A DNA stretch of 1,859 nt from Escherichia coli (lineage in GTDB: Bacteria > Pseudomonadota > Gammaproteobacteria > Enterobacterales > Enterobacteriaceae). A model generated the notes under the pieces. It was not told the origin of the DNA. It was given only the letters and a program-made list of their open reading frames with translations, and searched no databases. Each line of letters opens with the position of its first letter. Positions within the stretch are counted from its first letter, which is position 1. Made by a program: the position numbers and the translations under genes. Positions 1,124 to 1,416 of this stretch are shown in pieces. Location of the stretch: NCBI RefSeq assembly GCF_003334815.1, contig NZ_QOWO01000091.1. One strand, 5' to 3'.

Positions 1124-1229
1124 CAACCCTTCCGCCGCCACCCCTGCGGCCTGTTTCCCGCTGTGGACTTTCCGGGGGCTGGAGTAACCACATCCCGTTT
1201 CAGCAGTCCAGGGGAAGATATACCGTCCA

Positions 1230-1265
1230 CAAAATTTTTAGCCATAAACCCGGCAAAAAATTTTG
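1230..1265. repeat. AT-rich 10-bp inverted repeat embedded in GC-rich DNA
   Basis: CAAAATTTTT (1230..1239) is the exact reverse complement of AAAAATTTTG (1256..1265), with a 16-nt spacer AGCCATAAACCCGGCA. It is the only A/T-rich island in the spacer. Confidence 0.6.
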
Positions 1266-1416
1266 CGTCCGCCCCCGGACAGCTGCCCCGTGACGTGGTG
1301 ACGGACGCCCCATCGGAAAGGTCCACTGCGGGGAGAAACCCCGAAGAAGTGGACGGCAGAAGGGGCTTTCGCCCCTCCGGGGAGCAACCGGTCGGCCCGG
1401 CGACCTGATTCAGCAG

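Follow-up and report, generated by a model that had tools for sequence, protein, structure and literature searches.

The AT-rich palindrome in the GC-rich spacer downstream of ardA is very probably the tip of the hairpin of ssi2, a class-1 single-stranded-DNA (ssDNA) promoter that lies on the transferred strand of conjugative plasmids. The palindrome is assigned to this element because positions 1054-1379 of the window (the whole stretch of 1,859 nucleotides analyzed here), read on the minus strand, match ColIb-P9 "Frpo2"/ssi2 at 325 of 326 positions, and because pESBL (NC_018659.1) carries these 326 nt with 100% identity. The element is thus the already described ssi2 of ColIb-P9 and pESBL and not a new one. 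Our analysis further suggests that, as the apical stem-loop of ssi2 in a leading region of the IncI1/ColIb-P9 type, the palindrome is likely held by RNA polymerase as an upstream duplex, perhaps in the manner of an UP element. Taken separately, the proposal that the palindrome would form part of the polymerase-bound upstream duplex is reasonably favored, and the UP-like character of its tract is put forward tentatively. The finding places a first-pass observation within a characterized element and adds no new element to those described. The ssi/Frpo hairpins allow conjugative plasmids to express anti-restriction, SOS-inhibition, and other establishment genes before the incoming strand has been copied, which makes them central to the spread of resistance plasmids.

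The locus and the identity of the element

The whole window is a 100% match to an IncI-gamma/K1 plasmid and partially matches thousands of IncI and IncF plasmids. Between ardA and the gene that starts at 1431 lies a GC-rich spacer of 728 nt (703-1430), and it is in this spacer, and mostly on the minus strand, that the features of interest are found:

202-702, plus strand: ardA (annotation).
1054-1379, minus strand: ssi2 ("ColIb-P9 Frpo2"), the class-1 ssDNA promoter on the transferred strand (325/326 identical to AJ238399.1:4353-4678).
1133-1358, minus strand: long imperfect hairpin, 5' arm from 1358 to 1252, 3' arm from 1243 to 1133 (DNA fold).
1180-1186, minus strand: the half of a 4x4 internal loop that belongs to the 3' arm (TCCA, 1183 to 1180; TACTCC, 1186 to 1181), partner 1303-1306, unpaired in the MFE structure.
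1205-1210, minus strand: -35-like hexamer TGGACT on the 3' arm, conserved within the family and fully paired (partner GTCCG, 1276-1280).
1215-1223, minus strand: conserved 9-nt bulge on the 3' arm directly below the apical stem, transferred-strand 5'-GTATATCTT-3', unpaired in the MFE structure; a candidate exposed -10-like segment.
1228-1267, minus strand: the AT-rich palindrome as apical stem-loop, stem 1228-1243/1252-1267, loop 1244-1251 (repeat search, fold, and conservation).
1359-1378, minus strand: small GC hairpin separating the long hairpin from the ribosome-binding site (predicted pairs).
1418-1422, plus strand: AGGAG ribosome-binding site of the gene at 1431.
1431-1859, plus strand: first gene in the ssi2 operon, encoding the 144-aa hypothetical protein WP_000218858.1 and truncated where the window ends (annotation).

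NCBIfam gave no family match for either ArdA or WP_000218858.1. The genes of the leading region are all encoded on the plus strand and nikA/oriT lies ~4.4 kb downstream, and the minus strand is therefore the transferred strand (T strand), which enters 5' to 3' from oriT and serves as the template for the leading-region genes. Further copies of the spacer lie in this plasmid in front of ssb and of a DUF4942 gene, and the distances of the three copies from oriT agree with the AJ238399 coordinates.

The reference Frpo/ssi sequences were those of Supplementary Table 2 of Samuel et al. 2024. Positions 1160-1330 find a 100% match in ColIb-P9 (NC_002122), and nhmmer matches the element to ssi1, to ssi3, and to ssiD of plasmid F (E = 8e-9 for F), with the palindrome centered in ssi2. 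Thus, the suggestion in the initial annotation that the palindrome belongs to a Frpo-type element holds for the element itself, a homolog of the F Frpo; its placement of the promoter hexamers is taken up below. The Rfam covariance models gave no match at E <= 1 on either strand. The ssi elements of ColIb-P9 were reportedly described earlier, by Bates et al. in 1999 and by Nasim et al. in 2004, as was, reportedly, the Frpo (ssiD) of plasmid F, by Masai and Arai in 1997. In the account that Wen et al. 2025 give of pESBL, ssi1-3 and the F Frpos are classed as class-1 ssDNA promoters, the most active class; ssi1-3 are strongly induced minutes after transfer, being active early and only in single-stranded form, and their starts as mapped by 5' RACE agreed with the predicted promoters.

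The remainder of the window holds further structure. The minus strand at 842-1126 carries a RefSeq "hypothetical protein," WP_021013251.1, which lies inside the structured non-coding repeat and antisense to the leading genes, and which is probably a spurious ORF call. Upstream of the ssi2 hairpin in the mRNA sense, a GC-rich module (881-1082) is 93-96% conserved in many IncF and Klebsiella plasmids and in the copy upstream of ssb; it is missing from ssi1 and holds small T-strand hairpins, such as GCGACCGGAACGGTCGC. Two GC-rich hairpins follow directly on the ardA stop codon (709-727, CCCCCGC-TCCG-GCGGGGG; 731-762, GCCTGCCAGG-12 nt-CCTGGCAGGC), with no T run after them, and these might be the ardA terminator or might be more T-strand structure. 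Window positions 1-182, with sequence running on upstream (L001 7932-8182), contain most of a second, unrelated T-strand hairpin, a class-2 ssDNA promoter in the scheme set out by Wen et al., which is 93.8% identical to a copy upstream of the klcA/antirestriction gene in pESBL. The 3' arm of this class-2 hairpin bears the pair TTGCAT-15-TAAGAT, whose -35 is nearer the tip and whose -10 falls within an internal loop; from this pair a start ~50 nt before the ardA ATG is predicted (a 5' UTR of ~50 nt).

Fold of the palindrome and of the transferred strand

The palindrome was first noticed as a 10-bp inverted repeat with a 16-nt spacer, about 165 nt upstream of the ATG at 1431, and the sequence is exactly so: CAAAATTTTT (1230-1239) and AAAAATTTTG (1256-1265) are exact reverse complements with 16 nt between them, and the measured distance to the ATG is 166 nt. 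The inverted repeat is, however, longer than first noted. A repeat search gives arms of 14 nt (1230-1243/1252-1265) that are complementary at 13 of their 14 positions and enclose a loop of 8 nt, and in the DNA fold the stem comprises 16 positions (1228-1243 with 1252-1267), including one T.T mismatch and one G.T pair. The initial annotation had also spoken of an isolated AT-rich island within the GC-rich spacer. The island is real, in that no other 36-nt segment of the window is as poor in GC as 1229-1264 (27.8% GC, compared with 65% for the 703-1430 spacer) and the palindrome arms are the only A/T-only runs of at least 10 nt in the window, but it is not isolated, since it is the tip of the long ssi2 hairpin.

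Of dinucleotide-shuffled windows, 5.7% contain a perfect 10-bp inverted repeat whose loop is at most 30 nt, and the repeat is thus only weakly significant when taken alone. The palindrome is counted as real because it is conserved, being kept in thousands of plasmids and in the paralogous copies; the repeat by itself would not be compelling. As a fold, the local hairpin (a 54-nt stretch) reaches -11.7 kcal/mol, compared with -3.6 +/- 1.5 kcal/mol for shuffled sequences (z = -5.5), and none of 200 shuffles equals it.

In the long hairpin of which the palindrome is the tip, the transferred strand at 1133-1358 folds at -66.7 kcal/mol (z = -7.98), a value equaled by 0 of 200 shuffles. The complementary strand of the same segment folds more weakly, at -57.8 kcal/mol; five G.T pairs of the T-strand fold become A.C mismatches on that strand. 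Within a 361-nt context (1040-1400), the pairs of the apical stem have probabilities of 0.97-0.99, the highest in the structure. Read 5' to 3' on the T strand, the core consists of TGTCC-GGGGG, a 2x2 internal loop, an A/T stem of 12+3 pairs, the loop GGGTTTAT, and the returning stem, and it continues through the 9-nt bulge (1223 to 1215), CCCC-T-GGAC (with TGGACT from 1210 to 1205), and ~17-18 nt to the 4x4 internal loop.

The small hairpin at 1359-1378 shows a compensatory change, with GGGGC/GCCCC in ssi2 versus GGAGC/GCTCC in ssi1 and ssi3, and its site of action could be either the DNA or the leader of the mRNA. In a terminator scan, the minus strand at 1266-1281 was flagged for GTCCGGGGGCGGAC, after which comes the T run of a palindrome arm; since TGTCCGGGGG pairs within the long hairpin, the two structures compete, and the small one is most likely incidental.

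Conservation of the hairpin and of the A/T tract

Copies of the element were gathered from IncI, IncF, and related plasmids of Escherichia, Salmonella, Klebsiella, Cronobacter, Enterobacter, Serratia, Providencia, Pantoea, and Yersinia, and 19 distinct cores with the A/T stem, from Escherichia, Salmonella, Klebsiella, Cronobacter, Enterobacter, Serratia, and Pantoea, were aligned. With the ssi2-derived structure, 80% of the alignment cells pair, compared with 44-67% when the partners are slid by one to three columns, and double changes are found at 13 pairs, compared with 7.2 +/- 1.7 in shuffles. The three top pairs of the apical stem covary (GC to AU three times, CG to GC three times), and compensation is also seen in individual copies: one ssi3 copy has TTTTTAGCC/GGCTAAAAA where ColIb-P9 has T.T, and an F-like copy has AAAAGTTTTT/AAAAACTTTT. 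The pairs of the A/T tract, in contrast, carry identical letters in 18-19 of the 19 cores. Since the pairs of the structure covary and the letters of the tract are fixed, the hairpin appears to have been selected as a structure and the tract also as a sequence; by this comparison, the data point to sequence-specific selection on the A/T tract in addition to selection for pairing.

The center of the A/T stem bears on the same question. Its central pair is a G.G mismatch in 10 of the 19 cores, a Watson-Crick pair in eight, and T.T in one, and a G.G mismatch that is kept across genera is not explained by pairing alone. The mismatch arises where both arms read AAAA(A)GTTTT, as they do in 10/19 relatives (columns 26/51, the equivalents of 1235/1260); other copies have G-C, C-G, or T-A. 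The arms of many relatives are, in addition, direct repeats of AAAAGTTTT. A reading of the arms as a direct repeat, which a three-copy alignment had suggested for ssi1, was rejected: the T strand has one mismatch in the inverted arrangement versus two in the direct one, and there is true compensation, with G-C in the copy L002_4828 and A-T in the ssi3 copy of L001.

Below the tip, the bulge motif T-R/Y-C/T-A-T-Y-T is conserved across subfamilies, and its GGT..ATCT is invariant in the ColIb-type paralogs. CCCTGGAC is likewise invariant among the ColIb-type copies, and TGGACT has as its counterparts TGGACA in ssi3 (5/6 of TTGACA) and TTGGAT in the Salmonella-type copies. The sequence and length of the loop vary freely, and the length of the stem from bulge to loop is held at ~20-22 nt.

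The main rival to an UP-like role is a tip that is purely structural and easily opened, one that would only nucleate and cap the hairpin as the strand enters (5' arm, tip, 3' arm) and yield readily to complementary-strand synthesis or helicases, with no sequence-specific contact to polymerase. We consider this doubtful. Were pairing all that is selected, the tract should drift to G-C or swap its letters, and the central G.G mismatch, the fixed A/T letters, and the maintained distance from bulge to loop all argue against it, even though the fixed letters could themselves have been kept because the tip has to be weak and easy to open. The high pair probabilities of the apical stem, the covariation of its top pairs, and the freedom of the loop are as a structural tip would have them, and so is the report that class-2 hairpins, with their GC-rich tips, act as replication roadblocks and that class 1 primes synthesis. 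The same reading also gains from a natural subfamily (insect-metagenome Frpo'5/6, Yersinia pMT, and one Klebsiella copy) in which a short GC tip, CGCGG-TTTA-CCGCG, replaces the whole A/T stem and the bulge and CCCTGGAC are kept. Because this subfamily lacks the A/T stem, the A/T module is to be regarded as common but not universal.

The class-1-like hairpins without the A/T stem at L087 668-1008, at L088 9879-10163, and in insect Frpo'5/6 read GGG-CGCGG-TTTA-CCGCG-TGCCATTTA-CCCTGGAC, and the members of this subfamily all have the F-type 5'-arm TTGAGA-18-TAAACC. Beyond the gathered copies, a scan of 100,044 species genomes for the pattern TGTCCGGGGG-N45-75-CCCCTGGAC returned 82 matches, about the number expected by chance, the genuine ones being confined to a Pantoea contig and a single misbinned contig. 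A near-complete element of the F ssiD type (314 bits) is found in CAAGJS010000260.1, a 2,966-nt contig of an Erysipelotrichaceae MAG (L056 2609-2957), which is most likely a misbinned fragment of an enterobacterial plasmid.

Promoter geometry and comparison with known systems

In the published model of the class, the folded strand provides host RNA polymerase with a duplex that contains a -35 and a -10, and copying of the strand destroys the promoter. In conjugation, the minus strand carrying ssi2 reaches the recipient single-stranded, and its 226-nt inverted repeat (1133-1358) folds back on itself with the palindrome (1228-1267) at its tip. We propose that host sigma-70 RNA polymerase would then hold the A/T duplex of the tip as upstream DNA on the folded strand. 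The alpha C-terminal domains would most likely contact its A-tract and T-tract, which lie upstream of the -35-like TGGACT. Transcription would move down the hairpin, from tip to base, and continue into the gene at 1431. After synthesis of the complementary strand, the arms would lie 26 bp apart in an ordinary duplex, the geometry would be lost, and the promoter would be switched off.

An UP-like role for the tract is favored, with modest confidence. The window contains 11 matches, with at most two mismatches, to the UP distal-subsite sequence AAAWWTWTTTT, compared with 0.81 expected, and all 11 lie in the palindrome arms; if the -35 is taken to be TGGACT, the tract falls at -47 to -56, counted along the template arm; and an A+T-rich UP element is annotated in Frpo hairpins in the material presented by Samuel et al. 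More speculatively, the tract at the tip may be a sequence-specific recognition module on folded ssDNA, mimicking an UP element for the alpha subunits or serving another protein. If true, this would explain why the A/T letters are fixed across genera, why about half of the variants have G.G, and why class 1 is the strongest class.

The core promoter hexamers are less clear. Sigma-70 weight-matrix scans of all copies gave many weak, mutually exclusive candidates, and only weak candidate pairs (at most 6.1 bits), with several competing assignments, could supply a -35 and a -10 in the ssi2 stem. By its sequence, TGGACT could be the -35, with the 4x4 internal loop 17-18 nt below it as a pre-melted -10. 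Such a role for the loop is possible in the modeled fold, but the assignment is uncertain because the implied -10 falls in a segment that varies among the ColIb paralogs.

That the class-2 hairpin has its promoter pair on the 3' arm supports the orientation from tip to base as the normal design. With TGGACT as the -35 or with the bulge as the -10, both of which give this orientation, the palindrome would be upstream duplex bound by polymerase. The opposite course, in which transcription would start lower on the 5' arm and run up and round the tip, so that the palindrome would be a melted turning point or a hairpin of the leader RNA, takes its appeal from F: the 5' arm of ssiD carries the best canonical pair of the family, TTGAGA-17-CATACT (score 10), with its -10 in an internal loop, and F-type copies keep the pair as TTGAGA-17/18-CATCAC/TAAACC. 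We nevertheless judge this course improbable. ColIb-type elements, ssi2 included, are without the pair (the homologous site reads TGGACC-13-GTCCGT), which supports the tip-to-base orientation. The G.T pairs of the T strand would become A.C mismatches in the mRNA sense, and the plus-sense fold is the weaker one. In addition, only the upper hairpin is retained in the functional Frpo-acrIIA4 construct of Samuel et al., and TTGAGA is unpaired there because the lower 3' arm is absent. A speculation linked to that of a recognition module is that one internal loop carries the -10-like segment on one arm in ColIb-type elements and on the other arm in F-type elements, in which case hairpins of common descent would be transcribed in opposite senses with respect to the tip.

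A promoter carried by the palindrome itself appears about equally improbable. The initial annotation, following the Frpo-type reading, had placed the -35 and -10 within the palindromic duplex, but no acceptable sigma-70 pair is present there, the best spanning pair, TTGCCG-16-TTTTGT, scoring 5.1 bits with a poor -10. In a variant of this reading, the -35 would sit at the top of the stem and in the loop, the A/T tract would be a 17-nt spacer, and the bulge would be the exposed -10. The corresponding pair, ATGGCT-17-TATATC, is the best-scoring one in ssi2 (6.1 bits), the bulge is conserved in every subfamily, the ~20-22 nt from loop to bulge would suit such a spacing, and weak equivalents occur in F (TGGGCA-17-TGCATT) and in the Salmonella copies (TTCGCA-17-TTCATT). 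The -35, however, would lie half within the loop and is not conserved (GCGGCA and GCACGC elsewhere), the key -11 A and -7 T do not fall in one frame across the family, and the subfamily with a 5-bp tip has the bulge but no room for a -35.

Least probable is a role on the double-stranded plasmid, either as an unwinding element or as a binding site for a plasmid regulator or for Fis, H-NS, or IHF. For H-NS and for unwinding, A/T richness is the one pointer. As for the reading in general, the conservation exceeding the needs of pairing, the arms that double as direct repeats, and the one exact match to the degenerate Fis consensus GNNNAWWWWWTNNNC (1252-1266) would agree with it, but 23 of 200 shuffles also have such a Fis match, the IHF site proposed at first finds no match to WATCAANNNNTTR with at most one mismatch anywhere in the window, a duplex promoter scan found no sigma-70-like site in the window, and the tract always lies at the exact center of a 226-nt inverted repeat with strand-biased stability, which argues for a single-strand role.

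The reading we prefer, a tip held as UP-like upstream duplex, can be set beside several known systems. The ssi2 of ColIb-P9 and pESBL has the same sequence, lies in the same place between ardA and the next leading gene, and is on the same strand, with no difference. The F Frpo (ssiD) and Frpo2 share with ssi2 a homologous core of ~110 nt, consisting of TGTCCGGGGG, an A/T apical stem, a CAT-containing bulge, and CCCCTGGAC. Outside this core, however, the arms cannot be aligned, the 5'-arm promoter pair of F is lacking in the ColIb-type copies, and the apical stem of F has a C-G pair and an A.A mismatch where ssi2 has T-A. The class-2 promoter upstream of ardA and klcA resembles ssi2 in being a long T-strand hairpin of the leading region whose 3' arm bears a promoter-like pair, but the two have no sequence homology, the class-2 tip is GC-rich and without an A/T tract, and the class-2 -10, TAAGAT, is clear, unlike that of class 1. 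The UP element of rrnB P1-type promoters goes back, reportedly, to Ross et al. in 1993, and its consensus is said to be that of Estrem. The tract of ssi2 shares with this element its make-up of an A-tract followed by a T-tract, at one mismatch from AAAWWTWTTTT. In contrast to the rrnB P1 element, the duplex of the ssi2 tract is intrastrand, ends in a loop, often has a central mismatch, and is followed by a 9-nt bulge before the -35-like hexamer.
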